64,000 nt of DNA from Candidatus Margulisiibacteriota bacterium (GTDB taxonomy: Bacteria; Margulisbacteria; WOR-1; O2-12-FULL-45-9; XYB2-FULL-48-7): assembly GCA_025453605.1 (NCBI GenBank), contig JALOPZ010000002.1:388631-452630 (forward strand), in the 5' to 3' direction. Under the pieces are notes generated by a model, which was given only the letters and a program-made list of their open reading frames with translations, was not told where the DNA came from and searched no databases. Below, in pieces: positions 13,681 to 28,271 of this stretch (the first letter of the stretch is position 1; each line of letters opens with the position of its first letter). The translations under genes and the position numbers were made by a program.

Positions 13681-13696
13681 AGCTCTGCTCTAATAA

Positions 13697-13725
13697 TATA
13701 TCGGGCCAAGAGGGGGAAAACTTGC
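13697..13725 (-). promoter_or_regulatory. Sigma-28-like promoter motif P1: GCAAGTTTT-CCCCCTCTTGG-CCCGATATAT (gene strand)
   Basis: Reverse complement of tatatcgggccaagagggggaaaacttgc. It matches TAAAGTTT-N11-GCCGATAA in both elements and in spacing. The ATG lies 16 nt downstream. Confidence 0.65.
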
Positions 13726-13754
13726 ATCAAAAGAGCGTTTTTTTGTAGGCTAGA

Positions 13755-16031
13755 TCAGGCTTTTTTCGGCTTCTTTTCGGGAGCTTTCTGCAACTGGCGG
13801 CTCCGTTCGGCCCGTTCCGCGTTGCTCCGTTTATCGGCCGCCTTAGCGGTCGCTTCCCGTTCCTGCTGCCGTTTCTCAGCCGTTTTCTGGTCGGCGCGGC
13901 GGCTGGCCGCCTTTCTGGCTTCGTTGGCCGCCTCCACTTTTTTGTTAGCGGCGATCTCGTTGCCCTTTTCGGTAAAATCTTCCTTATCCTGATTATATTC
14001 GCGCTCGTTAGCTTTGCGCACATGCGCCCGCTCCCCGGCCAGGCGGAGCCCCATCCCGTTGCCGCTCTTGTAGAGCTGGCCGAGCAGGTGGACGACCCAG
14101 TTCTTGGTGTAGGCCGTGCCGGAGGTCGCGGTCGTCGAGTTCAGGCCAACAAACTGCATCCCGGAGTAAGCCGGGTGGTAATAATCCTCGTTCTGCTTGG
14201 TGTTCATCGTCACCCCATAGAGCGAGCTGACGATCGAACGCCAGTAAACCGTTTCGTCATTCGGGGATAACCTGGTCGCGCCTCCACCCGATCCGTTATT
14301 GGCGATCAGGATAACACTATCGGCAAATTTTCGGTCGTAACCGTAAGCGGCTGTCCGCTGCTCCGCGGCATACTTGTGAACGTTATAAACATATGCGCCG
14401 TTCACCGGGGTCCATTTAATATCTTCAGTAAAATCGGCCCCGCCCGGCCCGCCAAATTCGCCATAGCCGATCGCGACCCATTTCCCCTCTTTATCCTGGA
14501 CATAATCGTTGGTCCCGATCGTCACCGGAATCCCGCTGACCGCCAACCCGATCCCGAGGTCGCCGCCATAATTTACCTGGTTCGCCTCGCGAGCATAATA
14601 ATTTCCGAACCAGCTCTTGATAAAGGCATTAGCCTTGTCGTAGAGCTTCTTGCGGTTCAGAAAATCCTGCTTTTCCGCGTCGCTTAGCTCATCGACGTCC
14701 GTGTTGTCATATTGCTCCTGGGTCAGGCCGGAATAAGTGTACCGCCAGGTAAAAAGGTTCTGGCTGGCCAGGTCGGAATCCTGATCGACCGATGGGGTAT
14801 GATCGTTCATCCGATAATTTTCGTAGTCGCCCAGATAGTCGTTGAACTGGCGGGCCCCCATCGCCTGGGAAAAATCCCAGAACCGCATATTATCCAGCTG
14901 GGAGAGACTTAAACCAGCATTTTTGTTCCCTTCCCAGTACGCAGTCATGTGATTGGTGACGGTATGCTGGAGCTGAAAATAATTGGTAAAAAGGGAGATC
15001 TCATGGTAGTTATAATACGGCTTGTGCGCCCGAACAAAGGCATCGATATGCGTCATCATCTGTTTGTCATTACGCGTCTGATCGACCGGGCCAAAGACCT
15101 GTCGCTCCATGAACCAGATCCGGCGTGACGATTCCTTCATTGCCAGGGTGAGCATCATCTTACCGGTGGCGTCGAGGCCATTATAAGCCCCGCTCATGAC
15201 GATGTCGTAAAAGCTTTTGTTGCCAAAAGTGCTGTTCAACCAACTGGTCAACCGGGTAAAGCTCCAGCTCTCACCGGTCCAATCGCTAAGCAGCCCTAAT
15301 CCCTCGTCCCCATTGATAAAGTAGGCCTGATTGGCATCAGCCGCCCCTACCGCGTCCGGTGTCCCCGGCCGTTTGGCCCGGCTTAGGTGGTTCCACTCGC
15401 CGGCAGCGACCCGGAAATCGAGATTTTTGTACGATAACCCCATGTTCTTACCGGCCGAGACATTGGCCTGCTCATTGCTGCCGGGGCCGAACGAACCGGA
15501 TTTGTGCCGCTGGCCGGAGACCCAGTTATTGCGCCAATCGTTCAGGCCGCTACTGCCGGGATGCGACGCCTCCCAGGCTTTGAGTGAGACTTCGTTATCG
15601 ACCACGCCATTTTTGGCTAATCGTTTCATTTCTTCGTAATACCGGTACATCTTTTGGTCGTCCGCGTTGCTGCTCCCGGCCTTGCTCTTCCAATCGTCGG
15701 TGAACTGGCGCCATTCACTACCGTCGTTTTCATCGATCGTAAAGCCCCATTCGTTGAACTCTTTCAGCCAGTCATCCGTGACTCTGGTCGTTTCTTTGCC
15801 GTTCTGCAGCGCGACTCCCTCGCCTTCGTCGGCAAACGCGGTCCCTTCACAGTACATCTGCTCAAAGCCGGGGAGCCACTTCATCATCTCCTGGCCAAAA
15901 TTGGCCAGCCGGGCTAAGCCGGCATCTTTGGTGAGAAAGTTCTGCAGGTCGCGGGTCCGGGGCATAAGCTTGCGGCGCGGCGGCCGCAGCTGATATTCGT
16001 CCGTAGCGAGGAGGTTATTCCACGACGTCAT
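13755..16031 (-). CDS. Hypothetical 758-aa Trp/Tyr-rich protein with a ~110-aa Lys/Ala/Glu/Arg-rich C-terminal tail
   Basis: Long ORF. The tail ...NKKVEAANEARKAASRRADQKTAEKRQQEREATAKAADKRS...KKPKKA is histone-H1-like low complexity. Third gene of island operon 2. Confidence 0.6.
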   Translation of the reverse strand: MTSWNNLLATDEYQLRPPRRKLMPRTRDLQNFLTKDAGLARLANFGQEMMKWLPGFEQMYCEGTAFADEGEGVALQNGKETTRVTDDWLKEFNEWGFTIDENDGSEWRQFTDDWKSKAGSSNADDQKMYRYYEEMKRLAKNGVVDNEVSLKAWEASHPGSSGLNDWRNNWVSGQRHKSGSFGPGSNEQANVSAGKNMGLSYKNLDFRVAAGEWNHLSRAKRPGTPDAVGAADANQAYFINGDEGLGLLSDWTGESWSFTRLTSWLNSTFGNKSFYDIVMSGAYNGLDATGKMMLTLAMKESSRRIWFMERQVFGPVDQTRNDKQMMTHIDAFVRAHKPYYNYHEISLFTNYFQLQHTVTNHMTAYWEGNKNAGLSLSQLDNMRFWDFSQAMGARQFNDYLGDYENYRMNDHTPSVDQDSDLASQNLFTWRYTYSGLTQEQYDNTDVDELSDAEKQDFLNRKKLYDKANAFIKSWFGNYYAREANQVNYGGDLGIGLAVSGIPVTIGTNDYVQDKEGKWVAIGYGEFGGPGGADFTEDIKWTPVNGAYVYNVHKYAAEQRTAAYGYDRKFADSVILIANNGSGGGATRLSPNDETVYWRSIVSSLYGVTMNTKQNEDYYHPAYSGMQFVGLNSTTATSGTAYTKNWVVHLLGQLYKSGNGMGLRLAGERAHVRKANEREYNQDKEDFTEKGNEIAANKKVEAANEARKAASRRADQKTAEKRQQEREATAKAADKRSNAERAERSRQLQKAPEKKPKKA

Positions 16032-16049
16032 GCCTGCTCCCTAGCGGGG

Positions 16050-16376
16050 TTACCCGCCAAACAGGGAGAAGAGCTTATTGGAGAGATCGAGATCGTTCTT
16101 CTTGATAGCGAGGAGGCGATCGATCACGGAGAGCGTATCGGAGTTCCACTTGTCGGCCAGATAGGTGGCGGCCGCCGAGTCTTTTCTCACGATGTGGCCC
16201 TGGATCTCGACCGTTTCGGTCGTGTCGTCCGACATCGCTTCAACATAGGTCTTCATGTCCTGGTTGAACTTCTGCCAGAAATCGACGATCTTATCGGTAA
16301 CGCTGCTGGCGTCCTTTTCGTAGGAAGCCCCCTGTAGCTGGGATAATATTGCGTAACCGCTCTGAATTTCACTCAT
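16050..16376 (-). CDS. Hypothetical 108-aa acidic protein
   Basis: ORF between the 111-aa and 758-aa genes. It could be chaperone-like (small, acidic), but this is speculative. Confidence 0.45.
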   Translation of the reverse strand: MSEIQSGYAILSQLQGASYEKDASSVTDKIVDFWQKFNQDMKTYVEAMSDDTTETVEIQGHIVRKDSAAATYLADKWNSDTLSVIDRLLAIKKNDLDLSNKLFSLFGG

Positions 16377-16463
16377 CTTTTTCCATCTCCTTTTCCGTCC
16401 GCTTCAACCAGGGTTGCCTGATTTAAGAGGACGGGGCCCCCGGAGGGGCCACCGTCAACATTC

Positions 16464-16799
16464 TTACAGCTTCTGGGACAGCTTCGCATTGATCTGCTTG
16501 TCGAGGTTCGAGGCAGAGGCCAAGCCGCTCGCCTGGTTCTGCTGCCGCATGCTAAATTGTTCATTGACGTACAGGAAAGCCGAACCGTCAACCTTGACCG
16601 CTTTCCCGGCGCTGGTGACCACGCAACCGGCCGCATTCGCTTCGGCAGTCGTGTGACCTTTTCCCGCGTTGTAATCCGAAGCCTGGATGTCAGCACCAGA
16701 GTTCGCGTCAACGCCTTCGAAAGCATTGATGACCTGGTTTTGCCACGCATCGGTCTTTTGGTCCATCTTTATAAAAGAATCTGTCATATCTACGCTCAT
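16464..16799 (-). CDS. Hypothetical 111-aa protein (first gene of island operon 2)
   Basis: Preceded by the RBS AAAAGGGGGTGA and a ~95-nt leader from motif P2. Confidence 0.5.
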   Translation of the reverse strand: MSVDMTDSFIKMDQKTDAWQNQVINAFEGVDANSGADIQASDYNAGKGHTTAEANAAGCVVTSAGKAVKVDGSAFLYVNEQFSMRQQNQASGLASASNLDKQINAKLSQKL

Positions 16800-16869
16800 G
16801 TTCTTTCACCCCCTTTTAGTTTGGCCCGCCTGTCGAGAGCGAGCCTGATCTCCGATCCCCTTCCAATTG

Positions 16870-16898
16870 CTTATCGGGTCGAGCCCCGCAAAACTTGC
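16870..16898 (-). promoter_or_regulatory. Sigma-28-like promoter motif P2: GCAAGTTTT-GCGGGGCTCGA-CCCGATAAGC
   Basis: Reverse complement of cttatcgggtcgagccccgcaaaacttgc. It is the closest match to the E. coli FliA -10 GCCGATAA. Confidence 0.65.
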
Positions 16899-16901
16899 AT
16901 C

Positions 16902-17156
16902 CTAGACAACGGTATTTTGGACCAGCATCCCGGGGAGCGGCAGCCCGCCGAGCCCGGCCATGTAGCTTTTCACTTCGTGGGCCGCCGGCATAATAGCGTC
17001 GAGCTTGGCGCCGGCGCCGGCCGTCCCCGACCCGTCATTCCCCAAACCGAGCGCCTGGGAGACGTTATCACCGAGGGAATTAAGCGAGAGACCGCCTCCG
17101 CTCAGGTCGATCCCGTATTTGCTCTTGAGAGACTCTTCGGCGCGCAGCATGCTCAT
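16902..17156 (-). CDS. Hypothetical 85-aa Gly/Leu-rich protein
   Basis: The track ORF 16902..17219 is trimmed to the internal MSMLRAEE, because motif P3 lies inside the longer ORF's first 20 codons. Gly-rich (LGLGNDGSGTAGAGA...AGLGGLPLPGML). Confidence 0.45.
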   Translation of the reverse strand: MSMLRAEESLKSKYGIDLSGGGLSLNSLGDNVSQALGLGNDGSGTAGAGAKLDAIMPAAHEVKSYMAGLGGLPLPGMLVQNTVV

Positions 17157-17165
17157 GGCACTGTT

Positions 17166-17194
17166 ATTATCGGGGGGAGAGGCGGAAAACTTGC
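17166..17194 (-). promoter_or_regulatory. Sigma-28-like promoter motif P3: GCAAGTTTT-CCGCCTCTCCC-CCCGATAATA
   Basis: Reverse complement of ttattatcggggggagaggcggaaaacttgc. The ATG lies 9 nt downstream (leaderless-type). Confidence 0.6.
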
Positions 17195-17219
17195 ATTGCG
17201 GAGGTGACAGGGAAAACAC

Positions 17220-17408
17220 TAATTCTCACTAATTTGTCCGCTCGCGAATAACGCTAATGGGATTTTCACTAATTAGGCGAAGCACTCTAATTGACGCTTA
17301 TATCGCGAATATTGAGTAACATTAAATAATTAGCGTAGATTAGTGATGATTAGCGTCTTTAGCAAAATCCCATTAGCGATATTAGAGATCCTGGGTAATT
17401 AGTGATAA
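17220..17408. repeat. AT-rich (~35% GC) spacer with reiterated TAATTAGCG / CACTAATTAG motifs and a perfect 15-bp inverted repeat (cgctaatgggatttt at 17252-17266, aaaatcccattagcg at 17364-17378)
   Basis: Read directly from the sequence. It lies between the end of the giant operon and motif P3. No ORF of 60 aa or more. Confidence 0.7.
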
Positions 17409-17720
17409 TTAGCGTTTTGAGGGGTGGCCCAGGTCATTTAGGAGCTGGCGGATCCGGTCTATCGACGATTCCAGGGCTTTTTCTTCTTCTTCGCTGAAGC
17501 TGAAAAGCTTTTCCAGCTTCTCTTCTTTCTGCTTGTTGAGGTTCAGCAGAGCGGCCGAATTACCGTCGGCAATTTGCAGGTTGGCCGACTTGGCCAGCTG
17601 GCTCAGGTTCGCCGCAAAGCTCGGGCCGTTCTGGGCCTGGCTCGACGAACTCTGCTTATTGGCCGGCTTGATCGCCGCCGCGTCGTTGATAATATTCGGA
17701 TTCACGTTCCCGATGTTCAT
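17409..17720 (-). CDS. Hypothetical 103-aa Ser/Asn/Ala-rich, likely disordered protein, translationally coupled (ATGA overlap) to the giant gene
   Basis: MNIGNVNPNII...AANLSQLAKSANLQ...EEKLEKLFSFSEEEEKALESSIDRIRQLLNDLG. The size and composition are reminiscent of FlgM-type anti-sigma-28 factors, but similarity is weak. Confidence 0.45.
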   Translation of the reverse strand: MNIGNVNPNIINDAAAIKPANKQSSSSQAQNGPSFAANLSQLAKSANLQIADGNSAALLNLNKQKEEKLEKLFSFSEEEEKALESSIDRIRQLLNDLGHPSKR

Positions 17721-20700
17721 GCTGAATAGTTCCTTCCGACCCCGGCCAGAACAGCTTCTTCCTGCTGGGCCGCCAGATACCGGTCGTAGGCCGACGCCGG
17801 CTTGGCGAACCGGGGCTGCTTGGTTTCTTTCTTGACGCTGGCCTCGGTCCGGGCCGCGGCAACCTCGATCTTCTTCGCCGGCTTCTCTTCCTTGACCGGG
17901 AGCTCGCCGACACTTGCCAGGATCATCCCGGCCCGCTCAACCTCAAGATTATACAACCGCGGCGGCTGAGGCGCCAGCGGGACAACCGGGACCGGCTGCG
18001 GTTGGACCGCTGCCGTTTTGACCGGCCGGGCCGCCGCCAGCTTCTTCAAGATCTCTTCGACCGTCGCCTTATCAACCCCCTTGAGCAGAGCGAGACAGGT
18101 ATTCTCGTCCTTATTTCTCAGGTTGAGATCGGCGATCAGCTGATCGGCTTTGGAGACATAGATATCCTGCTCTTCTTCGACCCGGTGGGCATTGGCTGCC
18201 TTGGCGTCGGCCGCCTTTTGCGCGGTTGCTTCGTCGATCTTCCGGCCGGCATCCAGAGCCGCCTGTCCGGCCGCCACGATCTGCTCCCCTGCCTGCTGCG
18301 CGGCCGGTGTCGCAACGCTGGCCAGAGTCGTTGTCTGGGTCGTCGATCCGCTGCCGCTTTCGACCGCTTCACCCAGGTTCTTGAGCATGGTCTGCAGGGC
18401 GGCGATCTCTCTGTTCAGCTCCTTGATCTCGCCGCGGTTCCCTTTGATCTCCCCCATCAGTTCGTCGATCTTCCCTTTGGCCGCCTCGGTCCCGGCCAGG
18501 GCCGCTTTATGAGCTAGCTTGGCGTTCCGATATGAATCATTAATAGCTATTTTGATATTCTCTTTCTTCGTCAGGTCTGCCTGCTTAGTTTTCCGCTCTG
18601 CCGCTGTCAGCTTACCGCTCTCCAACTCCTGCCGGAGCGCGGCGATCTCCTTCTTATTCTGAACATACTGTTGCTCCAGGCTGGTCAGGTTATTGGCTGT
18701 TTTGACGACCGTCAGCGCGGCTGTCCCCTTGGCTGTCGCCAGCTCGTTGCGCTGGGCGACCAGAGCGGTGATCTCCGCCTGTTTCTGGGCGATCTCCGCC
18801 TGTTTCTGGGCGATCAGCGTCTTGATCTCCGTTTTGGTCAGCTGCTCGGGGTTACCGGCTGCCGCCTGGTTCGGAGCGGTTTTGAACTGGCCTTTGAGGC
18901 CGGATACTTCCTGTTCCAGCTTGACCTGAGCCGCTTTCCCCGATTCGATCTTGGCGTCAAAAGATTTGGTCAGGGCGTCAAGCGAATCGGCCAGGACTTT
19001 CTGGGAGCGGGCCGCCTGTTCCTGCCGCTGGAACTGGTGGGTCACGACCTGCTGGGCCGCCGCCGGATTGCCGGCCGCCGCCGCACCCGCTTCACCGGCC
19101 CGGGTCTGATCGGACGCAGTTGCCTTCTCCAGTTCGTTAACGGTCGCGATATCCGGGTTAAGGAAACTCTGGATAGTATAAACGGAGCTCTCCGGCATCA
19201 TCTTAAAGAACGAAAGGGCGGCATCGGCCTGCATTGATTTAAAACCGAGAACGTCCATCCCCTCTTCGCTCTGCGCCATCATATACTGGTGGGTCTCGAT
19301 GTCAGACTCCATACTATCGAGCGCGCCGGCAAAACCGGCCCCCTCTTCTTCACGCTCTTCAGTCGCGCAGGCGTTATTCTCTTCCTTCTTCTCTTTCCCG
19401 TCCGTTTTCTTCCCGCTCAGATCATTATGGACCGTATTCGATTTTTCATCATCGCCGGTGAAGCAGAGCGGGATCAGAGCGTTCAAGGAGCGGCCGACCA
19501 GATTGATGGTTGAGGAGAGTTTACCAACATTGCGCATGCTCCGGATCAGTTCACCCTTCTGGGAATTCAGCTTTTCTTTATCGACGTTCGATTGCGCCGG
19601 ATAGCTCTCCGCGATCTGCTTATCGATCTGCGCGATCTCTTTCTTCGTCCCGGCCCTGGCGATCGAGCACGAGAGCGAGATGGTCGAGACCGCGGCGCCA
19701 ACGAACGCCTGGGTCATCTGAACATATGCTTCGCGCTTCTGGTTCTCGCGCTGAACGATCGACTCCAGCGTCCCCTTGAGCGCCTCCAGGATCGAGAGGG
19801 CCGCCGAGCGGTTCGCTTCGACGATATCGGTCAGACTGGTGGAGGCCTGGAACTTGCCCATCGCCGCCTTGATCTCGCGCATGATCTGCATCGCCATGGC
19901 GATCGCCAGCTTGGCGTTGTATAAGCGCTCCATCCGGGTGTTGACCAACGCGGTATCGCCGCTGACGGACGAAAGACCGTAGTCGAGCGAGTTGATCAGA
20001 TCGGTCGACATCTGGCGCATGATCTCGTCTTCGCGCGCGTCCAGCTCGTCGGTCCAGTCGCCGGTTTTTTCGCTCTTCTTTTTGCCGTTCATTTCGTCGA
20101 CCGTGTCGTTGACATTGTAGTTCTTGAGCGCGCCGATATCGGCATTGGTCGTGTTGTTCGCTTCGATCACGCTGTACATGTTGGCGGCCAGGTTGCCGAG
20201 GGCCGGCAGGACCTCAGCCAACGCCATCCCGAACGAGCCGGCGGAGGTGGTCGCCATCAGGGACATGCTGGCGGCCGAGCAGGCGATATTGATCCCGCCG
20301 GTAATGCCGGCGTTGATCAGCTGTTTCTCGGCGTCACGCCCCTGGTTCATTACCGCCGCGGTCGTCCGCAGGTCGGCCGCCAGGTTGCTGACGATCCGGA
20401 GAGCGGCCGAGAAGCTGGCCTGATTGACCGATTTGGTCAGCTCCTCGGCGGCGGTCCCCGGCGCGACGCCGGTCAGCTCGCGCTGGACCGCGGCCCGGAC
20501 CTTGGCGCCGAGCGTCAAGGCATCGGAGAGGACCTGCTTCAGGGTGAAGATCCGCTGGATCTGCTTGATCGTTTTGGCGAGCTGGCTGTTGTTAAGCCCG
20601 TGGTAGCCGTCGCCGGTCCCGATCAGACCATTGGCCAGGAAGTCGAGCATCGCCTGCGCTTCCATCCGATCCAGTTTCCCCTCGATCGAATCGTCGTTGG

Positions 20701-23677
20701 CCGCCCGATTCGCCAGAAAAGCGTCCATCTCTTTGTCATTGGACCGATAGCTGATATTGCGCGATTCGTTGCTGGCGGCCAGACCGATCGAAACAGCCGA
20801 GCCGGCGATCGCCGCGCCGAGGTTAATGAACGCCCCGGCGACCGAACCGGCCGGTAAGAGCGAGACGATAAAACCGGCGATCGCGCCGACGCTCTGCCCC
20901 GCCGCGCCAGCGTTCATTTTGCCAAGGGCGATCTGCTTCTGGGTCTCCATGTTCCGGGCGGTGATGTACTGCGACAGCTGGAAGGTGATCGCCGAGGCGA
21001 CCGCCTGCCGCTGAGCAAGGAGCGCTTCGACGCTCTTCATCGTCAACCCTTCGATCGTCGATTCGCCCAGGCTCCCGCCGAAGGTCGCCTTGACCAGCCG
21101 GTTAATATCCTGCTTCTGTTTGGCGAGATAAAAAAGGACGCGGATCGCGTTGTTAAGGGCGTTCAGCTTCCGCTCGAAATTGGCGATCGCCTTGGAATCG
21201 AGGTGGTACATCCCGTCCTTGGTTTTGACCAGAAAAGCGTCGCCTTTGGCGAGGGCGCTCTCCATCTGGGCGATCTCGGCGTCAATGCTGTTAAAGACGT
21301 CGACGACCGTCTCGCCGGTGGAAGCGGTATCCGCTACCACATCAGAAGGAGTCGGCGCGCTGACATTGGGGGTGTCGATATCGCTCAAGATCTGGGAAGC
21401 GGCCAAAGCGGCGGTAGCGCCGAGCGCCGCACAAGCCGCGCCGACCGCGGTCAGCGCCGGCACCCAGGCTGGTGTCGAGGAACCGAGAGAGGCGACCGTG
21501 CAGATCGCGGCGATCACGACCGACGCGATCATCAGAACAATAGCGGCCGCCTGCATCGCCTTGGCCTGCTCCAGCCGGTCAAAGGTGTCGATGTTGAGGA
21601 GGAGCTGGTTGAAAACCGCCGCCCGCATCATCAGCTGCGAGAGGGCGGCGTCGACGATCTGGGTGGTCGGGCCGGTCATCAAGTCGGCCCCGGCGGCGAC
21701 CAGTTCGGCGTTGGTGGCAAAACCGCTCAGGCCGGTCAGCTCGCGGTAAACAGTGTTGCGGATCTCGCTCTTGAGCACGGCCAGGGCGGCGGCCATCCGG
21801 TAAGCGTTCTGTGCTTTGACGACGTTCCCCCGAACGACCTTAACCAGCTGGTCGATGTGCAGGTCCTGGATCGCGTCGCTGTTGTAGAAACCCGGTTCCG
21901 CCCATTTCACCGCTTTACCGTTGCTGCTGTAGTAGATCCCGTCGGACGAATCGCCGTCGGGATCGAAATCTTCGATCCCGAAATAATCGCGCTGGCCCGG
22001 ATCTTCTAAACTATCGAGGACCATGCCTCCAGGCACCAAAAGAATGCCGTAACCGCCCAGCTTGTCGTTGACATAATTCCAGGCCCGGGAGATCCCCTCG
22101 TACAGGACAAAGCGGATCCCGTCGACGAGATTATCGAGCACGATGTTGTCGAGGATATCGTCAACGACGACCCGGCCGATCCACTGGATAGCGTCGCCAA
22201 CACCGCCGTGAGTGCCGTAACCGCCATCCGCCCCCCACCCCTCTTTGGACGCCCAGGCCTTCTCCCACCCTTCGCCGCTAGTCCAGTTCTCGTTATCGTA
22301 GGCCCAGCCGAAAAGGGTCCAAATGATGTGGTCGACGAACTCGCCGATATAATTGAGCGCCGTGGCGATCACGTCAAGGATATTGGCTACCAGGGTCAGA
22401 CAAAACTCGACCGGGTTACGGGTCATATTGATCCCCATCTGACCCAGGTTAAGGACCTGGCCGATGATCGCACCACCGACCCCCAGTTCTTCTCCCAGCC
22501 AGTTCTGGCCGGCGCGCAGACACCCCCCCATACCGGACCAGAATTCATCCCAGCCGCCCGACCACATCTTGTCCCAGGCGGCGTCGCAGTCGTCGATCGC
22601 CTCCATCTCCTCGAGCTTCTTGTTGACTTCCTCCATCTTATCGTCGATCTGCTTGCCGAATTCATCCAGCTTGACCGTCAGCGCGCCCAGCCCGGAGGCG
22701 ACCGAAAGGGCCAGCATCCCCATCGCGCTGTTCTCCGGCATCTGCGCCAGCCCGTCGGTCATCTCTTTGATCATCGTCTGGATCAGCTGCTTGAACACTT
22801 CCAGGTTCCGCTTCATCGCTTCCAGGTACTGTTTCTGGTCCTGGCAGATCTTCCGGTTCAGCTTCTGGGCCTCATAACCTTGCGACCACCAGTTCGACCA
22901 CTTAAAGCCGCTGCTGTTCGACTCGTTCTGAGCGTCGGCCAGCTTTTTGTTGTAAACCGCGGTGTTATGGGTGTTGACCTCTTCCAGCATCTTGGCAAAA
23001 CCTTGCTGAGAAGCTTTCAGGATACCGGAGAAAAGCTTGAGGACGCCGGCGCGCATACTGGCCGATTTACCGCCGTTATCCATCTGCTGGCCGGTATAGA
23101 TCTCGTCGATCAGGTTGTTGATATCCCCCTTGAGCGACATGGCGATCGCCAGGCCGAGGAGCATGTTGAGGTAATGCATCATCTTGCGGGTGAACTCTTT
23201 AAGCGCCTCGTCCTTGAGGTAATAATAACCGTCGGCGCCGGCGCTGGTGTCGATCATTTTATCGGGATCAAAACCGCTGAAGAGGCCGTCCAGCCCTGCG
23301 TCAACAGTGCCGAAAGCTTCTTCCGCGCCGTAGTCGCCGGTCTCGGTCGGGGCGCCGGTCTGGCCAGCGCCAGTAGTCGGGCAAGCATCGCCAGGCTGAC
23401 CGACGCCAGGGTTAACCGGCATGGTCGCCAGGCCGTAAGCGGCAGAGTTGACAACGTAGTTGTCGCCTTCCCGCCCGGCGGCGCGAATATGGGGAGCGGG
23501 GGGATTGGTCCCGGCGGTGACGGTTGCCGCGTCGGGGCCGTTCAACTCCGCCCCGGCCGCCAGGATCGGATCGGCGGTCACAAACTGCGGTTGAGCGGCA
23601 GCGGCGGATGAGCCAAGGAGCTCACCATCGCGGGTGATGTTCTTAATATCAGGGGCTTGAATGGTCGGTGCTGTCAT
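17717..23677 (-). CDS. Giant 1986-aa protein with multiple Ala/Gly-rich hydrophobic segments and a ~600-aa C-terminal coiled-coil region
   Basis: Single uninterrupted ORF with host codon usage. Hydrophobic or glycine-zipper stretches (AAAIVLMIASVVIAAICTVASLG..., AGFIVSLLPAGSVAGAFINLGAAIAGSAVSIGLAA, GITGGINIACSAASMSLMATTSAG). Heptad-like repeats (IAQKQAEIAQKQAEITALVAQRNELA). Trp-rich acidic segment (WDKMWSGGWDEFWSGMGG). Preceded by motif P4. Confidence 0.7.
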   Translation of the reverse strand: MTAPTIQAPDIKNITRDGELLGSSAAAAQPQFVTADPILAAGAELNGPDAATVTAGTNPPAPHIRAAGREGDNYVVNSAAYGLATMPVNPGVGQPGDACPTTGAGQTGAPTETGDYGAEEAFGTVDAGLDGLFSGFDPDKMIDTSAGADGYYYLKDEALKEFTRKMMHYLNMLLGLAIAMSLKGDINNLIDEIYTGQQMDNGGKSASMRAGVLKLFSGILKASQQGFAKMLEEVNTHNTAVYNKKLADAQNESNSSGFKWSNWWSQGYEAQKLNRKICQDQKQYLEAMKRNLEVFKQLIQTMIKEMTDGLAQMPENSAMGMLALSVASGLGALTVKLDEFGKQIDDKMEEVNKKLEEMEAIDDCDAAWDKMWSGGWDEFWSGMGGCLRAGQNWLGEELGVGGAIIGQVLNLGQMGINMTRNPVEFCLTLVANILDVIATALNYIGEFVDHIIWTLFGWAYDNENWTSGEGWEKAWASKEGWGADGGYGTHGGVGDAIQWIGRVVVDDILDNIVLDNLVDGIRFVLYEGISRAWNYVNDKLGGYGILLVPGGMVLDSLEDPGQRDYFGIEDFDPDGDSSDGIYYSSNGKAVKWAEPGFYNSDAIQDLHIDQLVKVVRGNVVKAQNAYRMAAALAVLKSEIRNTVYRELTGLSGFATNAELVAAGADLMTGPTTQIVDAALSQLMMRAAVFNQLLLNIDTFDRLEQAKAMQAAAIVLMIASVVIAAICTVASLGSSTPAWVPALTAVGAACAALGATAALAASQILSDIDTPNVSAPTPSDVVADTASTGETVVDVFNSIDAEIAQMESALAKGDAFLVKTKDGMYHLDSKAIANFERKLNALNNAIRVLFYLAKQKQDINRLVKATFGGSLGESTIEGLTMKSVEALLAQRQAVASAITFQLSQYITARNMETQKQIALGKMNAGAAGQSVGAIAGFIVSLLPAGSVAGAFINLGAAIAGSAVSIGLAASNESRNISYRSNDKEMDAFLANRAANDDSIEGKLDRMEAQAMLDFLANGLIGTGDGYHGLNNSQLAKTIKQIQRIFTLKQVLSDALTLGAKVRAAVQRELTGVAPGTAAEELTKSVNQASFSAALRIVSNLAADLRTTAAVMNQGRDAEKQLINAGITGGINIACSAASMSLMATTSAGSFGMALAEVLPALGNLAANMYSVIEANNTTNADIGALKNYNVNDTVDEMNGKKKSEKTGDWTDELDAREDEIMRQMSTDLINSLDYGLSSVSGDTALVNTRMERLYNAKLAIAMAMQIMREIKAAMGKFQASTSLTDIVEANRSAALSILEALKGTLESIVQRENQKREAYVQMTQAFVGAAVSTISLSCSIARAGTKKEIAQIDKQIAESYPAQSNVDKEKLNSQKGELIRSMRNVGKLSSTINLVGRSLNALIPLCFTGDDEKSNTVHNDLSGKKTDGKEKKEENNACATEEREEEGAGFAGALDSMESDIETHQYMMAQSEEGMDVLGFKSMQADAALSFFKMMPESSVYTIQSFLNPDIATVNELEKATASDQTRAGEAGAAAAGNPAAAQQVVTHQFQRQEQAARSQKVLADSLDALTKSFDAKIESGKAAQVKLEQEVSGLKGQFKTAPNQAAAGNPEQLTKTEIKTLIAQKQAEIAQKQAEITALVAQRNELATAKGTAALTVVKTANNLTSLEQQYVQNKKEIAALRQELESGKLTAAERKTKQADLTKKENIKIAINDSYRNAKLAHKAALAGTEAAKGKIDELMGEIKGNRGEIKELNREIAALQTMLKNLGEAVESGSGSTTQTTTLASVATPAAQQAGEQIVAAGQAALDAGRKIDEATAQKAADAKAANAHRVEEEQDIYVSKADQLIADLNLRNKDENTCLALLKGVDKATVEEILKKLAAARPVKTAAVQPQPVPVVPLAPQPPRLYNLEVERAGMILASVGELPVKEEKPAKKIEVAAARTEASVKKETKQPRFAKPASAYDRYLAAQQEEAVLAGVGRNYSA

Positions 23678-23684
23678 TACAAAT

Positions 23685-23714
23685 ATATATCGGTCCGAAG
23701 GGGGAAAAACTTGC
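23685..23714 (-). promoter_or_regulatory. Sigma-28-like promoter motif P4: GCAAGTTTT-TCCCCCTTCGG-ACCGATATATA
   Basis: Reverse complement of tatatatcggtccgaagggggaaaaacttgc. The ATG lies 8 nt downstream of the CCGATATA element. Confidence 0.6.
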
Positions 23715-23731
23715 GTAATTTGGGGACTTTT

Positions 23732-24964
23732 TTAGCTGGCGGATGGGACAGCAACCTGCCCCTTATTTTGCCTAATACCGTCTAAAATCTGACCGATCCG
23801 GCCGACATCCGTTTGACCTAATTGTTTAAGTGTTACCCTGATCTGCCAAAAAGCCTTGCTGTAGCCTGGCTCTTTGACATCGACCCGGGCGAGTTTCGCC
23901 TCAATTTCCGGGTTTTTAAGCTCCCGAAGCTTGCCGAGCGCCTTATCGTTCCACTCTGATTCTTCGATCGCCTTGCGCTCCGGCAGCTTACCCTCGATCA
24001 TGTACTGCCTGAGAATGGTCGCCGCGAACCGGTCGCGGGAGAGAGCGTCTGTCAACTCCATATCCAGCCCGTCGCGGGACATTTCGCCCTGAAGCTGCAA
24101 AGCCAGTTTGTAAAAGACCATCAGCGCCTGCTGTTGTTCGTGCTTTGAACCGTTGAGCAGCTCAGCCAGTTGGCTGGCCACGTCGTCGGCCCGGTATTCG
24201 CCGTCCTGAGGCGGGAAGTAAGCCTCCATCAGCGCCCGATGCCGCGAGGTCATCAGCTTGAGTTCTTCATGATTGTTTTCCGTCAATCCTCTGGCCACCG
24301 CCAGCAGGTTTTTGGCGCCGATCAATGTCCGGATCCGGGAGGCGGACAAAAAAGTCCGCGCGTCCTGACCGGTCCCACGCAAATAGGTTTTCCCCTGGCG
24401 CAAATTCTCGACCAGTTCACCGGTTGAGACTTTGTCCTTATCACCCATCAGACTGTGCCACTGCTGTTCGCCCACTTTCTGGCCGATCATCTCGGCAAAA
24501 TCCTCTCTGGTGATCCCCCCGCGCAGCTCCGCGGCGGTAAGGACCCTCATAAATTTATCCCGCGGCAGGCTGGCGACGTCGCCGCTCAGAAAATAGACAG
24601 TTTCAAAATAAGCATCCACCCCATCGTTAGCCGGCCGTCCGTTGGGTACAGCGGTCTGGCGCCCCCCCGCGACAGCCACCTTCCCACCCCCGGCCGCTGG
24701 GGCATCCCCTTTGATCTCCGTATCGGCCAGCAACCCGTCATCCCCGGCCACCGCTTTCCACTCCTTTTCGGAGAGAGAGATCTTGACCGTGTCGGAGCAA
24801 TAATCCTGCAGCTCCTTCAGGCTGATCTGTTTATCGCCATCCTGATCGAGCAGCTTGATCTCCCCATCGGCCCCCTGTTTGCTCGAGGAGGCGCTAAGCT
24901 TATTCTTACCGACATATGACGCCACCTGCCGGGCGCTCAATAAGACTTTACCGGTTTCGTTCAT
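23732..24964 (-). CDS. Hypothetical 410-aa protein with an N-terminal EF-hand-like Ca-binding loop
   Basis: DQDGDKQISLKELQDY fits the canonical 12-residue EF-hand loop D-x-D-x-D-x-x-I-x-x-x-E. The rest is unrecognised. Last gene of island operon 5. Confidence 0.55.
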   Translation of the reverse strand: MNETGKVLLSARQVASYVGKNKLSASSSKQGADGEIKLLDQDGDKQISLKELQDYCSDTVKISLSEKEWKAVAGDDGLLADTEIKGDAPAAGGGKVAVAGGRQTAVPNGRPANDGVDAYFETVYFLSGDVASLPRDKFMRVLTAAELRGGITREDFAEMIGQKVGEQQWHSLMGDKDKVSTGELVENLRQGKTYLRGTGQDARTFLSASRIRTLIGAKNLLAVARGLTENNHEELKLMTSRHRALMEAYFPPQDGEYRADDVASQLAELLNGSKHEQQQALMVFYKLALQLQGEMSRDGLDMELTDALSRDRFAATILRQYMIEGKLPERKAIEESEWNDKALGKLRELKNPEIEAKLARVDVKEPGYSKAFWQIRVTLKQLGQTDVGRIGQILDGIRQNKGQVAVPSAS

Positions 24965-25191
24965 TTTTTATCCCTCTGCTCGCGCAGCGCCGTCTTCAGG
25001 TCGGTCAGCTGGGAGCGCATCTTCTGCTGGACCTGCTCCAGATGCGCCTGGGCCGCTTTGGTCCGCCGCCGGGCAGCCGCCAGGGCGACATAGCCGGTCA
25101 GCACCCGCCCGATCGCCGAAACGATCAGCAAGAACGAGAGCGCCAGCGAAAAGCTGACCAGATTAAAGTTTTGCGCCAAATAATCGAACAT
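24961..25191 (-). CDS. Hypothetical 76-aa single-pass membrane protein with coiled-coil tail
   Basis: LVSFSLALSFLLIVSAIGRVLTGYVALAAA is a predicted TM helix, followed by a charged helix. Confidence 0.45.
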   Translation of the reverse strand: MFDYLAQNFNLVSFSLALSFLLIVSAIGRVLTGYVALAAARRRTKAAQAHLEQVQQKMRSQLTDLKTALREQRDKK

Positions 25192-25201
25192 TATTCTCCC
25201 C

Positions 25202-25489
25202 TTATTTCAAAAGCGAGATCGTCGCCGTATTGAACCACTGACGGACTTTCCCCTGAATAAGATCCGGCATAGTCGAACCTTGGGCGGCCGCGCCCACCTT
25301 GGGCTGGCCGTTCCGGTCAGTCCGCTGGACCGCGTTCTGCGCCGCTTTGGTATCGCCCTGGACCGGCGAATGAAGCATATCCAAACACCGTTCGGCCGCC
25401 TCATCGGTCGCCCGCCGGCGCTCGCCGAGATTTTGCCGGCCCGGGCACTTGTTCGAGTCGGCGAGCTGATTGGTCATTTGGACGCCCAT
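25202..25489 (-). CDS. Hypothetical 95-aa protein
   Basis: ORF in island operon 5. No domain recognised. Confidence 0.4.
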   Translation of the reverse strand: MGVQMTNQLADSNKCPGRQNLGERRRATDEAAERCLDMLHSPVQGDTKAAQNAVQRTDRNGQPKVGAAAQGSTMPDLIQGKVRQWFNTATISLLK

Positions 25490-25662
25490 TACAGCAACTC
25501 CTTACGGGCGGCGGCGTAGTCGCCCTTGTTGCCCGACGGTATTTCCTCGGGCGTGATGCCGGACCGGTTCTCCAGAGCGAGCAGATCGGTAACCTCTTTA
25601 CAGAGGGTATCGATCTCCGCTCCGAGCTTATTCAAATTGATGTTTTCGACCGTCGATTCCAT
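25489..25662 (-). CDS. Hypothetical 57-aa protein (first gene of island operon 5)
   Basis: The start is set at the ATG preceded by GGAGGG (9-nt spacing) rather than the upstream GTG. It lies 25 nt downstream of motif P5. Confidence 0.4.
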   Translation of the reverse strand: MESTVENINLNKLGAEIDTLCKEVTDLLALENRSGITPEEIPSGNKGDYAAARKELL

Positions 25663-25684
25663 ATCTGATAGTCCCTCCACTGGT

Positions 25685-25713
25685 TATATCGGGCTTACCC
25701 CCAAAAAACTTGC
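25685..25713 (-). promoter_or_regulatory. Sigma-28-like promoter motif P5: GCAAGTTTT-TTGGGGGTAAG-CCCGATATAA
   Basis: Reverse complement of ttatatcgggcttacccccaaaaaacttgc. Confidence 0.6.
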
Positions 25714-25720
25714 ATCGGGA

Positions 25721-26440
25721 TCACGGTTTTTTTACGGCCTCAACCAGGGGGGCAAAAAAGGCGCGGATCCGGTCAACTGTCCCAGCCTCCCCGGGGTCCC
25801 AGCTCTTCCCCAGGACCAGGTCAACCTCGCCCAGGAGAAAGATATCCCGGTTAGGCTTGTTCCCCTCGCCGACCGTCCTGATCGTCAGCGGACGGACGGT
25901 CGCCCCGGCTTTAGCCGCCAGACTAAGCAATTTCTCCAGTTTTTCGCGGGAATGACGGCTTTCTCCGTAGAAGATCTCATAGTAAATAACGACCGGTTTT
26001 TCGGACTGCAGCCGCTGATAGATCGCCCCGGCAAATAGCCAGGCAGCCGGCCGGTCATCATCCCGACGCGGATAGGGGATATAACCGAGGGTCCGCAAGA
26101 CCCGGCCGACGATCCAGAGCTTGAGGAGCGAATCGGCTACCACCATCGGGAGCTCGGACGAGAGGGCGGCTACCAGGTAGAGAGGAGCGTTGCGGCACGG
26201 TCGGTTGACCAGCAGAATGGTCCGGCCGGCGGCCAGCACCGCCTGACCGGGGGCGACGATCCGGACCCCGCCCAACCGGAGAAAAAAGGCGACGATCACC
26301 CGGGCGATCTGACGGTATAACACTTTTCCCGCCGGGCCCCATGGGGCGATCAGCCAGGAAAACAGGTAAAAGAAAAGAAAGAGCAGCCTAATCCCGAGCC
26401 AGTAATAAAGGTTGGCGATCAGGCGCCGCAGCCATCTCAT
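25721..26440 (-). CDS. PlsC/LPLAT-like acyltransferase-domain membrane protein (degenerate; no canonical HX4D)
   Basis: N-terminal TM region, then ...RTILLVNRPCRNAPLYLVAAL..., an acyltransferase-like fold with Arg in place of the catalytic His. Confidence 0.4.
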   Translation of the reverse strand: MRWLRRLIANLYYWLGIRLLFLFFYLFSWLIAPWGPAGKVLYRQIARVIVAFFLRLGGVRIVAPGQAVLAAGRTILLVNRPCRNAPLYLVAALSSELPMVVADSLLKLWIVGRVLRTLGYIPYPRRDDDRPAAWLFAGAIYQRLQSEKPVVIYYEIFYGESRHSREKLEKLLSLAAKAGATVRPLTIRTVGEGNKPNRDIFLLGEVDLVLGKSWDPGEAGTVDRIRAFFAPLVEAVKKP

Positions 26441-26646
26441 GGCTTGTTATCGTCGTCAACCTGGCTGAAAAAATCGATCTTATAAACCTCGGCCGTTTTC
26501 TGTTCCAGGGCGCTCTTTTCTTTTTCCAGCCGGTCGATGGTCTCACGCAGGCTCGCGGCGCTGGCCGCGGCGGCGACCGTATTCCGCACGACCAAACTGA
26601 TCAGCACGATCAGGACCACCAGCACGATCAGCCAGATGATCATCAT
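26437..26646 (-). CDS. 69-aa single-pass membrane protein with coiled-coil (FtsB/FtsL-like architecture)
   Basis: MMIIWLIVLVVLIVLISLVV followed by ...LRETIDRLEKEKSALEQKTAEVYK. Confidence 0.4.
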   Translation of the reverse strand: MMIIWLIVLVVLIVLISLVVRNTVAAAASAASLRETIDRLEKEKSALEQKTAEVYKIDFFSQVDDDNKP

Positions 26647-27323
26647 TTCCCCTCCTCCAACACCCGAAATAAATTCGCCAAAGTGCTCTTTTCGGCTGGA
26701 CCGGCGGGCCGCCAGGGGGAACCGATCTTAAGCCGGACCCGGCCGGGGTTGATCAAATACTCCGACGTGACCGGCGGCTGCTCGATCAGGAGCGGGATGA
26801 TCGCCGCTCCGCACAGGCGCGCGGTCCTGACCAGCGCGTCGTCAAGTTCGGCCGGTTTGCTGACCAGCCGCCGCAAGGCGGGCGGAAAGACCAACACCTG
26901 CTCTCCCCGCTGCAGCGCCTCCCGCAGGGATAAGAGAAAGGCGACGTCGGTCCCACCCAATTCGTAGATCAGGCAACCGGCGCTTTTTAAAACCCGGCCG
27001 AGGAGCGGAACCCGTAAAATATTGGAATCGGCGACCAGGCGCAAACGCTCCGGCCGGGCGGCGACCAGGTAAAGCGGTTCCAGTAAACCGGGATGCTCGG
27101 CTACCCAAAGAGAGCCGCCGCGCATTTTTCCCTGCGGCGCGCCGACCACTTCTACCCTGATAAAAGTGCAAGCCAGCAGAAGCTTCATCATTTGTCGGAA
27201 TATAGCGTAATACAGCGGACGAGCCAGGTCGCCCAGCGGCAACAGCAGCCAGGCCAGAACAGCCAGGATCAGCAAACCGATCAGGCAGAGGAGAAAGAAA
27301 TACGCCGAGAAAAGCCATGCCAT
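26643..27323 (-). CDS. PlsC/LPLAT-like acyltransferase-domain membrane protein (HX4E variant: EHPGLLE)
   Basis: N-terminal TM helix, then WVAEHPGLLEPLYLVAARP...VFPPALRR, an acyltransferase-like protein paralogous to 25721..26440 and 9265..9774. Confidence 0.4.
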   Translation of the reverse strand: MAWLFSAYFFLLCLIGLLILAVLAWLLLPLGDLARPLYYAIFRQMMKLLLACTFIRVEVVGAPQGKMRGGSLWVAEHPGLLEPLYLVAARPERLRLVADSNILRVPLLGRVLKSAGCLIYELGGTDVAFLLSLREALQRGEQVLVFPPALRRLVSKPAELDDALVRTARLCGAAIIPLLIEQPPVTSEYLINPGRVRLKIGSPWRPAGPAEKSTLANLFRVLEEGK

Positions 27324-27365
27324 GATGGGGGGATTATAGCAAATCGACCGGCCGGTGACTATCGT

Positions 27366-28271
27366 TTAGATCTCGTTCAAACCGGCCCGTTTGGCACTGG
27401 TTTCCGGTTCCGGCAGGATCGAGACCGACCAGTAGTGGACCGGGCTGGTCCGGTTCAAATAGGCGTAATCGAGGTTGATCCCGCCGACGCTGATCCCGAG
27501 TCCGGTCGTCGTGCAATCGGTGGAACGGCCGGTCCGCAGCGCTAAACCCTTGACCGGCGTCCATTCACAGCCGAGCTCCTCGCCTTCGACCGTCCAGGTG
27601 ACATTGCCGTCAAACAGCCGGCCGGCCGCGCCGGCCAAAACCGCGTACTGCTTCCGGTCGACGGTCGAGAGATTGGCAATGGCGCTCTTGTCATTCCCCA
27701 TAAAGTTCTGGACCGCCAGACCGAGCGACAGGTCGCCGTTCGGCTTAAAGATCGTCGCCAGGTCGAGGTCGACGCTGGAGCCGCCATCCTGGGCGAGACC
27801 GTTGGCGATGCCGATCTTCCGGCTCGATAATTTCACGTTCATCCCGAGCTGCAGGGAACCGAGGCTGGCGGGGACCCGCATCGCCTGGTTCAGGTCGCGG
27901 GCCATCGTGATATAAAGTGTCTGGGTCGTGTATTTGACCGGGCTGTCGCCGTCATAGGTCGTGACCGGGACAGTCCCCTCGATCGGATCGCTGGAGCCGA
28001 TGTAACCGATCCCGAGATTACCGAACGGGGTCGTTTCCACTCCGCCGATCATCGTATATTCCCGACCCTCCTGAAGCCTGGTGGCGGCCATGACCGATTC
28101 CCGCTTCAACCCGGCAATACCGGCCGGATTAATGAAGATCGCGTTGACGTCATCGGACATCGCGACCCAGGCGCCCCCCATCCCCATCGGCCGGGCCCCG
28201 AGGTTTTCCTGAGCCAGCGCCGGAACCATTAACATAACTAATAGGAGCGCACAGAGAGTTGTTTTGTTCAT
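27366..28271 (-). CDS. Outer-membrane beta-barrel protein, PorV/FadL/UPF0164-like
   Basis: Signal peptide MNKTTLCALLLVMLMVPALA, then MGMGGAWVAMSDDVNAIFINPAGIAGL, which is characteristic of this OMP superfamily. Preceded by motif P6. Confidence 0.6.
   Translation of the reverse strand: MNKTTLCALLLVMLMVPALAQENLGARPMGMGGAWVAMSDDVNAIFINPAGIAGLKRESVMAATRLQEGREYTMIGGVETTPFGNLGIGYIGSSDPIEGTVPVTTYDGDSPVKYTTQTLYITMARDLNQAMRVPASLGSLQLGMNVKLSSRKIGIANGLAQDGGSSVDLDLATIFKPNGDLSLGLAVQNFMGNDKSAIANLSTVDRKQYAVLAGAAGRLFDGNVTWTVEGEELGCEWTPVKGLALRTGRSTDCTTTGLGISVGGINLDYAYLNRTSPVHYWSVSILPEPETSAKRAGLNEI

Follow-up and report, generated by a model that had tools for sequence, protein, structure and literature searches.

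In a 64,000-nucleotide stretch of the genome of a Candidatus Margulisiibacteriota bacterium (contig JALOPZ010000002.1 of assembly GCA_025453605.1; hereafter, the window), we analyzed a protein of 1986 amino acids (aa), termed here the giant, which is encoded in a co-oriented island of 19 genes organized in six transcription units. As judged by our homology searches, the giant is the founding member of a phylum-restricted family; no characterized family, fold class, or system fits the protein or its gene block, and we regard both the family and the gene system as new. The interpretation that we prefer, tentatively and at somewhat less than an even chance, is that the giant would be a polytopic, cytoplasm-facing inner-membrane scaffold of an envelope-associated apparatus.

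The open reading frame and its family

The giant is a real, intact protein. Its open reading frame (ORF) starts with ATG and contains no internal stop, as a first-pass annotation of this DNA had proposed, and its exact sequence is held in NCBI (MCU0641621.1, locus tag MUC35_05980, a 'hypothetical protein' of a Candidatus Margulisbacteria metagenome-assembled genome), in JGI (contig Ga0392394_0000002, 527,632 bp), and in a Logan assembly. Two orthologs, P0002 and P0054, support the start codon, since conservation with them begins at Met1. What speaks for an assembly artefact or a pseudogene read-through is a second NCBI assembly of the same population, GCA_025490975.1, whose contig JAOQIB010009129.1 carries a 107-nt deletion (window positions 23144-23250; L002 8313/8314) with GATCG microhomology at the flanks; the deletion shifts the frame and thus gives a 1807-aa call, the gene being otherwise the same as in the window save for two substitutions. 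This deletion is either a real disrupted allele or a misassembly. The residues encoded by the deleted stretch are conserved in P0002 and P0054, which, together with the conservation from Met1, indicates that the intact long ORF is the functional form. Orthologs of 2272 and 2288 aa are likewise uninterrupted, about 50 relatives are similar in length, and the three records of the intact sequence are independent; the artefact, to which we leave a vanishing chance, is therefore rejected.

The giant showed no family and no catalytic domain in Pfam (E<=0.01), NCBIfam (E<=0.1), PHROGs, or PADLOC, in agreement with the earlier statement that none is recognizable. Moreover, PDB sequences gave no match to the family profile (best E 0.72), and a Foldseek comparison with viral predicted structures (BFVD) returned nothing at E<=0.001, the best match having an E of 0.049 and a TM-score of ∼0.1. 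A scan of the GTDB representative genomes with the giant yielded no match; among the same genomes, SecA of the window is 57-58% identical at best. A word-indexed homolog search retrieved only the giant itself and one 42%-identical ortholog, because the low-complexity query saturates its candidate list and the family was missed. An exhaustive HMMER search of 1.84 billion cluster representatives, with a two-sequence profile covering residues 160-1290, identified 53 proteins at E<=1e-3 (30 of these at E<=1e-30), nearly all of them 1500-2460 aa long. Ten of these relatives were looked up, and all those with an organism name are from Margulisiibacteriota. Within the family, the core of the giant is 56% identical to P0002; the C-terminal arm differs between members in both sequence and length, whereas the peptides at the two ends are conserved. 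Our literature searches on Margulisbacteria motility, on giant proteins, and on the assembly accessions found nothing on this family. The view that the protein matches no translocator, tape-measure, or scaffold family specifically has thus survived searches of families, PDB sequences, and folds, which brought up neither a confident homology to a characterized family nor a prophage context.

Modular architecture of the giant

Family alignments and domain mapping revealed a common plan, namely, in order, an N-terminal peptide, a low-complexity linker, a module N, a Trp-rich insert (in one sub-clade), modules A to D, a variable helical arm, and a C-terminal tail (Table 1). Comparisons of sub-alignments with hhalign scored A against B at 98.6% (E 1e-15), B against C at 99.5% (E 3e-23), C against D at 99.6% (E 5e-25), and B against D at 98.3%, and module N against B, C, and D at 95.5-97.3%. 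We disregarded the N-versus-A score (E 8e-61), which is an artefact because the module A sub-alignment held module N of other sequences. By these profile comparisons, N, A, B, C, and D are five homologous repeats of ∼185 aa each.

The Gly/Ala/Ser-rich hydrophobic blocks of the giant, of which three or more had been reported earlier, are the ends of these modules. They comprise residues 704-764, 923-969 (including the previously quoted AGFIVSLLPAGSVAGAFINLGAAIAGSAVSIGLAA), ∼1125-1170, and ∼1320-1340, with weaker blocks at residues 317-337 and 422-445. Their hydrophobicity is kept across 39 relatives, in which the median best 19-residue Kyte-Doolittle values of hairpins A to D are 2.46, 1.81, 1.64, and 1.57, and module A is strongly hydrophobic in all of them; in the giant itself, the first hydrophobic segment of module A reaches 2.75. 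Read from the translation, the hairpin loops are uncharged and 4-9 residues long, and their flanks contain Lys or Arg.

An AlphaFold2 model of residues 600-1345, built on a 39-sequence alignment (mean predicted local distance difference test score 76.1, predicted template modeling score 0.71), shows the same helix, beta-hairpin, long-helix, and hydrophobic-helix pattern four times. Each modeled module starts with a short helix and a two-stranded beta-hairpin carrying the conserved DGxYxLD / TGDGYxGVN motif, and continues with a helix of ∼40 residues, then one of 65-75 residues, the last third of which forms the first hydrophobic segment, and finally a hydrophobic helix of 22-28 residues.

Outside the modules, the conserved N-terminal peptide lies at about residues 8-35 in most full-length members, with a consensus formed by an acidic helix followed by AGAGAQPxY[LI]xS[DE]. 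We considered this motif as a double-glycine leader for a peptidase-ABC exporter and rejected it, since its hydrophobic and Gly positions are off the -4/-2/-1 register and the island contains no such transporter. The Trp-rich acidic segment described before is present, with 12 Trp in residues 301-500, and the insert is restricted to the giant and to P0002, P0054, and P0055. The C-terminal region (residues 1346-1954) consists of a charged linker, Ala/Gln/Lys/Glu-rich helical stretches, and a Pro-rich stretch; the IAQKQAEIAQKQAEI repeat and the Pro-rich stretch near the end were both found in the translation. The first-pass annotation had regarded these ∼600 residues as a heptad-repeat region. 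By a crude Fourier test, a 3.5-residue hydrophobic periodicity is significant in two patches, residues 1501-1600 and 1701-1800, and the heptad description holds there and not over the whole region; a first crude heptad score of ours did not discriminate between regions. The chain ends in a conserved tail with the family consensus S.Y..QYE.A..EEE...GAGV[SA][C]-COOH.

Table 1. Coordinates of the giant, its parts, and the genes and promoters of the island (window positions)
Feature	Positions	Strand	Remarks
19-gene island	9771-28311	-	co-oriented, six transcription units
Giant ORF	17717-23677	-	1986 aa
N-terminal peptide, residues 17-36	23570-23629	-	GELLGSSAAAAQPQFVTAD; family alignment
Module N, residues ∼150-345	22643-23230	-	weakly hydrophobic end 317-337; hhalign; matched in most relatives
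Trp-rich acidic insert, residues ∼346-599	21881-22642	-	sub-clade-specific
Module A, residues 600-785	21323-21880	-	strongly hydrophobic hairpin 704-764 (DNA 21386-21568)
Module B, residues 790-975	20753-21310	-	glycine-zipper hairpin 923-969 (DNA 20771-20911)
Module C, residues 995-1180	20138-20695	-	moderately hydrophobic hairpin ∼1125-1170
Module D, residues 1200-1345	19643-20080	-	single hydrophobic segment ∼1320-1340
Variable C-terminal region, residues 1346-1954	17816-19642	-	poorly conserved, length varies across family
C-terminal tail, residues 1955-1986	17720-17815	-	...SAYDRYLAAQQEEAVLAGVGRNYSA; family alignment
103-aa protein	17409-17720	-	start overlaps the giant's stop (ATGA, 4 nt); 79% identical to L001 ortholog
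Promoter of giant	23687-23716	-	ACGCAAGTTTTTCCCCCTTCGGACCGATAT; ATG 10 nt after CCGATA, no visible Shine-Dalgarno
PorV-like outer-membrane protein gene	27366-28271	-
Promoter of PorV-like gene	28283-28311	-	ATG 11 nt after CCGATA
57/63-aa gene	25489-25680	-
Promoter of 57/63-aa gene	25687-25715	-
∼80-aa gene	within 16902-17219	-
Promoter of ∼80-aa gene	17168-17196	-	ATG 11 nt after CCGATA
111-aa gene	16464-16799	-
Promoter of 111-aa gene	16872-16900	-
758-aa protein	13755-16031	-
176-aa gene	13150-13680	-
Promoter of 176-aa gene	13699-13727	-
GT2-TPR glycosyltransferase	11724-12767	-
540-aa protein	10099-11721	-

A sigma-28-type promoter before six units

The 54-nt spacer upstream of the giant (ACGCAAGTTTTTCCCCCTTCGGACCGATATATATTTGTAATG) contains the promoter-like element AAGTTT-N13-CCGATA, which occurs six times in the window against 0.03 copies expected. 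All six copies are intergenic, on the minus strand, and within 13.7-28.3 kb, and each fronts one transcription unit of the island; their extended consensus is [AC][TC]GCAAGTTTT-N12-CCGATA[AT]. The same arrangement precedes the giant ortholog in L001, and the motif is kept at orthologous sites there and in three further loci, namely L083, L084 (Saganbacteria), and L085.

The sigma-28-type promoter proposed earlier therefore stands as a sequence motif. The sigma-28 (FliA) consensus of E. coli is TAAAGTTT-N11-GCCGATAA, and that of B. subtilis SigD is TAAA-N15-GCCGATAT. The island motif resembles FliA/SigD/WhiG promoters in its -10 (CCGATA[AT]) and -35 (AAGTTT) elements, in a spacing within 1 nt of the E. 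coli consensus, and in its repetition before six co-oriented units. It differs from them in that its -35 element starts with GCAAG rather than TAAAG, in that several start codons lie just 10-11 nt from the -10 element, giving what would be near-leaderless mRNAs, and in the sampled genes behind it, none of which is flagellar. An exact-pattern scan of public metagenomes retrieved 80 motif loci, about 14 of which resemble intergenic promoters; among the matches listed, a small sample, none of the 10 proteins scanned behind the motif had a flagellar domain, and 9 of the 10 had no Pfam domain at all. Behind two of the metagenome copies lie island-family genes: one codes for a member of the 540-aa family (33% identity), the other for a member of the 176-aa family (24%). 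The window contains no sigma-factor gene, and 'sigma-28' is used here as a label for the promoter sequence alone; the acting sigma factor and the transcription start are what we infer from it.

The short distance to the ATG, without a Shine-Dalgarno sequence, is found for the barrel, giant, and ∼80-aa genes (28243-28311, 23648-23716, and 17128-17196) and recurs in the orthologs. Provided that transcription begins as far from the -10 element as is usual, the mRNAs from these three promoters would be leaderless or nearly so.

Two further genes showed related elements. Upstream of a 339-aa protein (52748-53768, -) with no Pfam or NCBIfam match, the sequence GAAATTA-N-GCCGATAA ends 10 nt before the ATG; this gene, which lies 24 kb away from the island, may belong to the regulon as a seventh and more divergent member. 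In L148 (JGI contig Ga0180007_10003295), the motif lies ∼200 nt upstream of a 3539-aa ORF (2840-13680, +), an unannotated giant gene with a SecA_DEAD-like region (E 3e-11), which possibly reflects the same kind of regulon in a related organism.

A conserved 19-gene block

In transcription order, the island encodes a PorV/PorQ-like outer-membrane barrel; a PlsC-like acyltransferase; a 69-aa protein with a transmembrane segment plus coiled coil; a second PlsC-like acyltransferase; 57/63-aa, 95-aa, and 76-aa proteins, the last again with a transmembrane segment plus coiled coil; a fast-evolving 410-aa protein; the giant; proteins of 103, ∼80, 111, 108, 758 (Trp/Tyr/Asn-rich), 176, and 128 aa; a GT2-TPR glycosyltransferase; an all-helical 540-aa protein; and a 104-aa protein. 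The giant is the largest of these products, in keeping with its earlier description as the dominant product of the island. The barrel match (48.8 bits) is under the NCBIfam cutoff, the acyltransferase matches are weak (33.6 and 18.7 bits), and apart from these and the glycosyltransferase, the island proteins have no family match. Rfam, rRNA, and tRNA scans of the window were empty.

The block is bounded by ispF-pdxJ-rpiB-nucleotidyltransferase on one side and by acyltransferase-fabG-acpP-fabF on the other, and it occupies the same position in two further genomes, namely L001 (JGI 3300063055) and L083 (GCA_041650855.1). Since it is found between the same housekeeping genes in all three, the block is vertically inherited and chromosomal rather than a mobile element or prophage. 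The ATGA overlap behind the proposed coupling of the giant to the 103-aa gene follows from the coordinates, and this gene pair is retained in both genomes. Between the window and L001, identity is 81% for the nucleotidyltransferase, 70% for the 540-aa protein, 42-82% for the matching small island proteins, 42% for the giant, 40% for the 758-aa protein, and 23% for the 410-aa protein; the 95-aa and 104-aa proteins had no BLAST match in L001. The more distant locus L085 keeps the order of the giant, the small genes, a ∼680-aa protein, proteins of 172 and 132 aa, the GT2-TPR, and a 543-aa protein. A sub-cluster in Saganbacteria (L084 4768-11599; GCA_016219705.1) encodes proteins of 84, 110, 106, 712, 172, and 128 aa, a GT2/TPR, and a 532-aa protein, and carries three promoter copies.

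The 540-aa protein bears the NCBI name Candidatus Margulisbacteria protein, and its 51 homologs with names come from Margulisbacteria, Margulisiibacteriota, and Saganbacteria, save one labeled Omnitrophota and one labeled simply 'bacterium'; comparison of the family members with Pfam gave no consistent family. The homolog search with the 758-aa protein gave three matches. NCBI names it 'cell envelope integrity protein TolA', and it contains no TolA or other domain in Pfam or NCBIfam; the name probably derives from a C-terminal tail rich in Lys, Glu, and Ala, and the rest of the protein is unannotated and rich in Trp, Tyr, Asn, and Gly. The closest NCBIfam model to the GT2-TPR glycosyltransferase is the SunS peptide S-glycosyltransferase (E 2.9e-19, 69 bits versus a 350-bit cutoff), and the conservation of such a SunS-like protein in the island suggests that one of the island proteins may be glycosylated.

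Many chains of both families end in Cys. In the giant family, nine of the 49 members above 700 aa do so (GAGVSC, GVAC), and in the 540-aa family, EAC-COOH is the terminus of 27 of 42 members; in the window, the 540-aa protein ends in EAV and the giant in YSA. The terminal Cys may serve a modification, a disulfide, or lipidation. A co-variation of these residues between the two families, which would indicate S-glycosylation by the SunS-like GT2-TPR or a disulfide, was considered and rejected, as pairs on the same contig do not strictly co-vary.

Outside the island, a protein at 49595-50125 (-) carries the JGI annotation T6SS_HCP (PF05638), with no other type VI secretion genes among its neighboring genes. 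Moreover, a YcaO-domain protein directly follows a fabF-like ketosynthase gene beside acpP and fabG (5252-8175, -), where the JGI annotation splits the ketosynthase into 318-aa and 144-aa calls; this arrangement beside fatty-acid genes recurs in L083.

Predicted membrane topology and possible roles

In our interpretation, an alternative sigma factor with sigma-28 (FliA/SigD/WhiG) specificity would drive transcription of the giant gene and of the 18 other genes, in six units. The protein has no signal peptide and would begin with ∼140 disordered residues carrying a conserved docking peptide. In each of the five modules, the ∼40- and ∼70-residue helices would form an antiparallel stalk, and the end of the long helix would pair with the 22-28-residue helix in a hydrophobic hairpin closed by the short loop. 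The hairpins, certainly those of modules A and B under this proposal, would insert into the inner membrane, each returning the chain to the cytoplasm, so that the stalks, the Trp-rich insert, the ∼600-residue variable arm, and both conserved termini would be cytoplasmic. The stalks would thus stand on a predicted bundle of up to nine membrane helices, which would anchor the giant in the membrane and perhaps shape it, while the arm would act as a spacer and the two terminal peptides would dock partners from the same island.

This proposal starts from features that are directly supported: the ORF and its family, the repeats with hydrophobic hairpins kept across relatives, the conserved terminal peptides, the promoter motif, which recurs in related loci, the syntenic setting, and the absence of any known homolog; membrane insertion and topology as well as the scaffold role are what we infer. 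A very hydrophobic segment in a protein without a signal peptide would be a target of the signal recognition particle (SRP) and is expected to insert co-translationally. Co-translational insertion would therefore be expected of the first segment of module A, which emerges after 700 residues. The short uncharged loops and Lys/Arg flanks fit an in-out-in hairpin, and a conserved core with a varying arm and kept termini is what one would expect to see if the protein consists of an anchor, a spacer, and docking sites. The companions, being membrane or envelope proteins and lipid acyltransferases, point to an envelope-associated structure. The repeats, the modeled module pattern, the vertical inheritance of the block, and the promoter common to all six units and conserved in four other loci also speak for this reading.

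Several observations weigh against this interpretation. The hairpins of modules C, D, and N are marginal in the giant's own copy (1.21-1.59), which would also suit segments that stay soluble before insertion. The Saganbacteria sub-cluster has no giant gene directly upstream, and divergent dihydroorotate dehydrogenase genes lie there instead, so the giant may not be obligatory for the apparatus. A disordered N-terminus, an amphipathic tail at the C-terminus, a promoter of sigma-28 type, and small helical proteins encoded nearby are also hallmarks of flagellar type III late substrates and their chaperones. Moreover, 'scaffold' is a weak functional statement. In the Saganbacteria genome, the giant, if present, is encoded elsewhere.

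The main rival to the scaffold, unlikely in our estimate yet the most serious of the alternatives, is that the giant is an exported membrane-inserting protein, similar to a translocator, an Inc protein, or a pore former, and leaves by a signal-peptide-independent route such as flagellar type III export; the small co-encoded proteins would serve as chaperones, and the modules would insert into the cell's own outer membrane or into that of a partner or prey. The flagellar export chaperones FliS, FlgN, and FliT bind their substrates at the C-terminal tail, and the giant combines a conserved amphipathic tail with the missing signal peptide, the disordered N-terminus and its conserved peptide, the promoter type, the coupled 103-aa helical protein, and several conserved neighbors of ∼80-110 aa that are 64-82% identical between genomes. 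In addition, the bilobed Gly/Ala/Ser-rich segments of the giant, with their short loops, are reminiscent of those in chlamydial Inc proteins and type III translocators; modules C and D have hairpins of just moderate hydrophobicity; and some Margulisbacteria carry flagellins and FlgV (PMC7018530, PMC11607428). However, with its strong hydrophobicity in all relatives, the module A hairpin should direct the giant, via SRP, into the membrane of the cell itself; the island and the 10 kb beyond the window ends contain no gene for a secretion ATPase, an export gate, or an injectisome, and no flagellar gene was found in the window or over the same distance beyond it; the giant contains no Pfam translocator, colicin, ClyA/Hbl, or flagellar domain; and in the small metagenome sample, none of the proteins scanned behind the motif has a flagellar domain. 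Pore-forming modules of the ClyA/Hbl/MakA or colicin kind, of interest because MakA exits Vibrio by way of the flagellum, were rejected for the giant, as neither fold nor sequence supports them. A bolder conjecture, which we consider improbable, is that the island across Margulisbacteria and Saganbacteria encodes an unrecognized envelope apparatus or organelle with the giant at its center; in its boldest version, the giant and its small neighbors would serve a type III-like export route as its non-flagellar cargo and chaperones, and the hairpins would be inserted into a partner-cell membrane for attachment or exchange, set against a phylum that includes epibionts and endosymbionts.

A sub-variant of the scaffold, less probable again, is that the giant shapes membranes or organizes lipid domains, its hairpin wedges and oligomerizing helices acting as in reticulons, caveolin, and CurT, and the PlsC-like acyltransferases and neighboring fab genes supplying lipids. 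Two such acyltransferases lie behind the same promoter type, a third lies at the island edge beside fabG-acpP-fabF, and the hairpins are repeated with short uncharged loops. Against this, the argument is one of pure analogy, the acyltransferases are matched weakly, the hairpins have the length to cross the whole bilayer instead of forming a half-bilayer wedge, no intracellular membrane system has been reported for the phylum, and literature searches returned nothing on the family. Far less probable, and rejected, is a phage tail tape-measure protein of a prophage or tailocin. Size, helicity, glycine-zipper segments, and occasional hydrophobic or Trp-rich stretches make the two superficially alike, and several weak BFVD matches are annotated as tape-measure proteins. 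However, the giant matches no PHROG and no Pfam family, and the best BFVD match is as poor as stated above; among nine neighbors scanned, just the 76-aa protein matches a PHROG, weakly and to a non-structural family ('hol-like chemotaxis', E 4.9e-4); and no capsid, portal, terminase, tail, or integrase genes occur among the neighbors. Furthermore, the block holds the same place on the chromosome, flanked by housekeeping genes, in genomes that share ∼81% identity in their housekeeping proteins, and the gene set is conserved across a phylum. The remaining probability falls to functions not yet imagined.

Margulisbacteria and Saganbacteria are uncultivated sister lineages of Cyanobacteria whose cell biology is almost unstudied. 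The family described here, with ∼50 sequence clusters of mostly 1500-2460 aa, spans the phylum and is built on a repeat module without a detectable relative in sequence or in solved structures. It belongs to a conserved block of ∼19 genes, nearly all unannotated, whose dedicated alternative-sigma promoter has been kept across deep divergence and in many cases sits so near the start codon that near-leaderless mRNAs would result. With a single promoter motif and a defined set of genes, this is a concrete, testable regulon, which would mark an unknown cellular structure or program in a major dark-matter lineage. Should the giant prove to be exported, it would represent a class of membrane-inserting proteins not described before; as a resident scaffold, it would instead show a novel construction for a multi-hairpin membrane anchor. 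As an uncultivated phylum can be expected to hold orphan clusters, the finding is less surprising than it may seem.

Comparison with known systems

The closest comparisons, namely with translocators and Inc proteins, mitofusin-like anchors, and coiled-coil landmark proteins, are analogies alone. The SipB/IpaB/YopB translocators and Inc proteins resemble the giant in lacking a signal peptide and in placing a short-looped, bilobed hydrophobic hairpin after long antiparallel helices, and small helical proteins are encoded near the giant as well. Residues 704-764 and 923-969 fit an Inc-like bilobed hydrophobic domain (∼40-60 residues with a short loop), here repeated. In Chlamydia, a sigma-28 factor drives late genes. 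The giant differs in that it has no sequence or fold match to these proteins (no SipB/IpaB/YopB or SseC-like translocator domain at the Pfam and NCBIfam thresholds given above), consists of five tandem modules in 1986 aa rather than a single hydrophobic domain in 300-600 aa, and has a first hairpin much more hydrophobic than expected of a secreted substrate. Moreover, no injectisome genes lie nearby, and no Sct or Fli/Flh genes occur in the window or within 10 kb beyond either end, where the sole TPR protein is fused to the GT2 glycosyltransferase, in contrast to a class II TPR chaperone.

Mitofusin/Fzo1 (heptad repeat, transmembrane hairpin, heptad repeat), the dynamin-like IniA, and the paddle of BDLP have long helical bundles that end in a membrane hairpin, as predicted for the giant, whereas the giant has no GTPase domain and its repeat organization is unrelated. 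Phage tape-measure proteins, weighed above, share size and helicity with the giant and differ from it in genomic setting, the giant having no PHROG or BFVD match. For TipN, EzrA, HubP, and golgins (giantin), no homology to the giant was detected in Pfam, NCBIfam, or PDB sequences, and those proteins have one or two transmembrane helices where the giant would have four or five hairpins on repeated stalks. They nevertheless share with it a plan of membrane anchor, long variable helical arm, and conserved terminal docking motifs, and it is this plan that the giant family follows in letting its arm diverge in sequence and length while both termini are kept.

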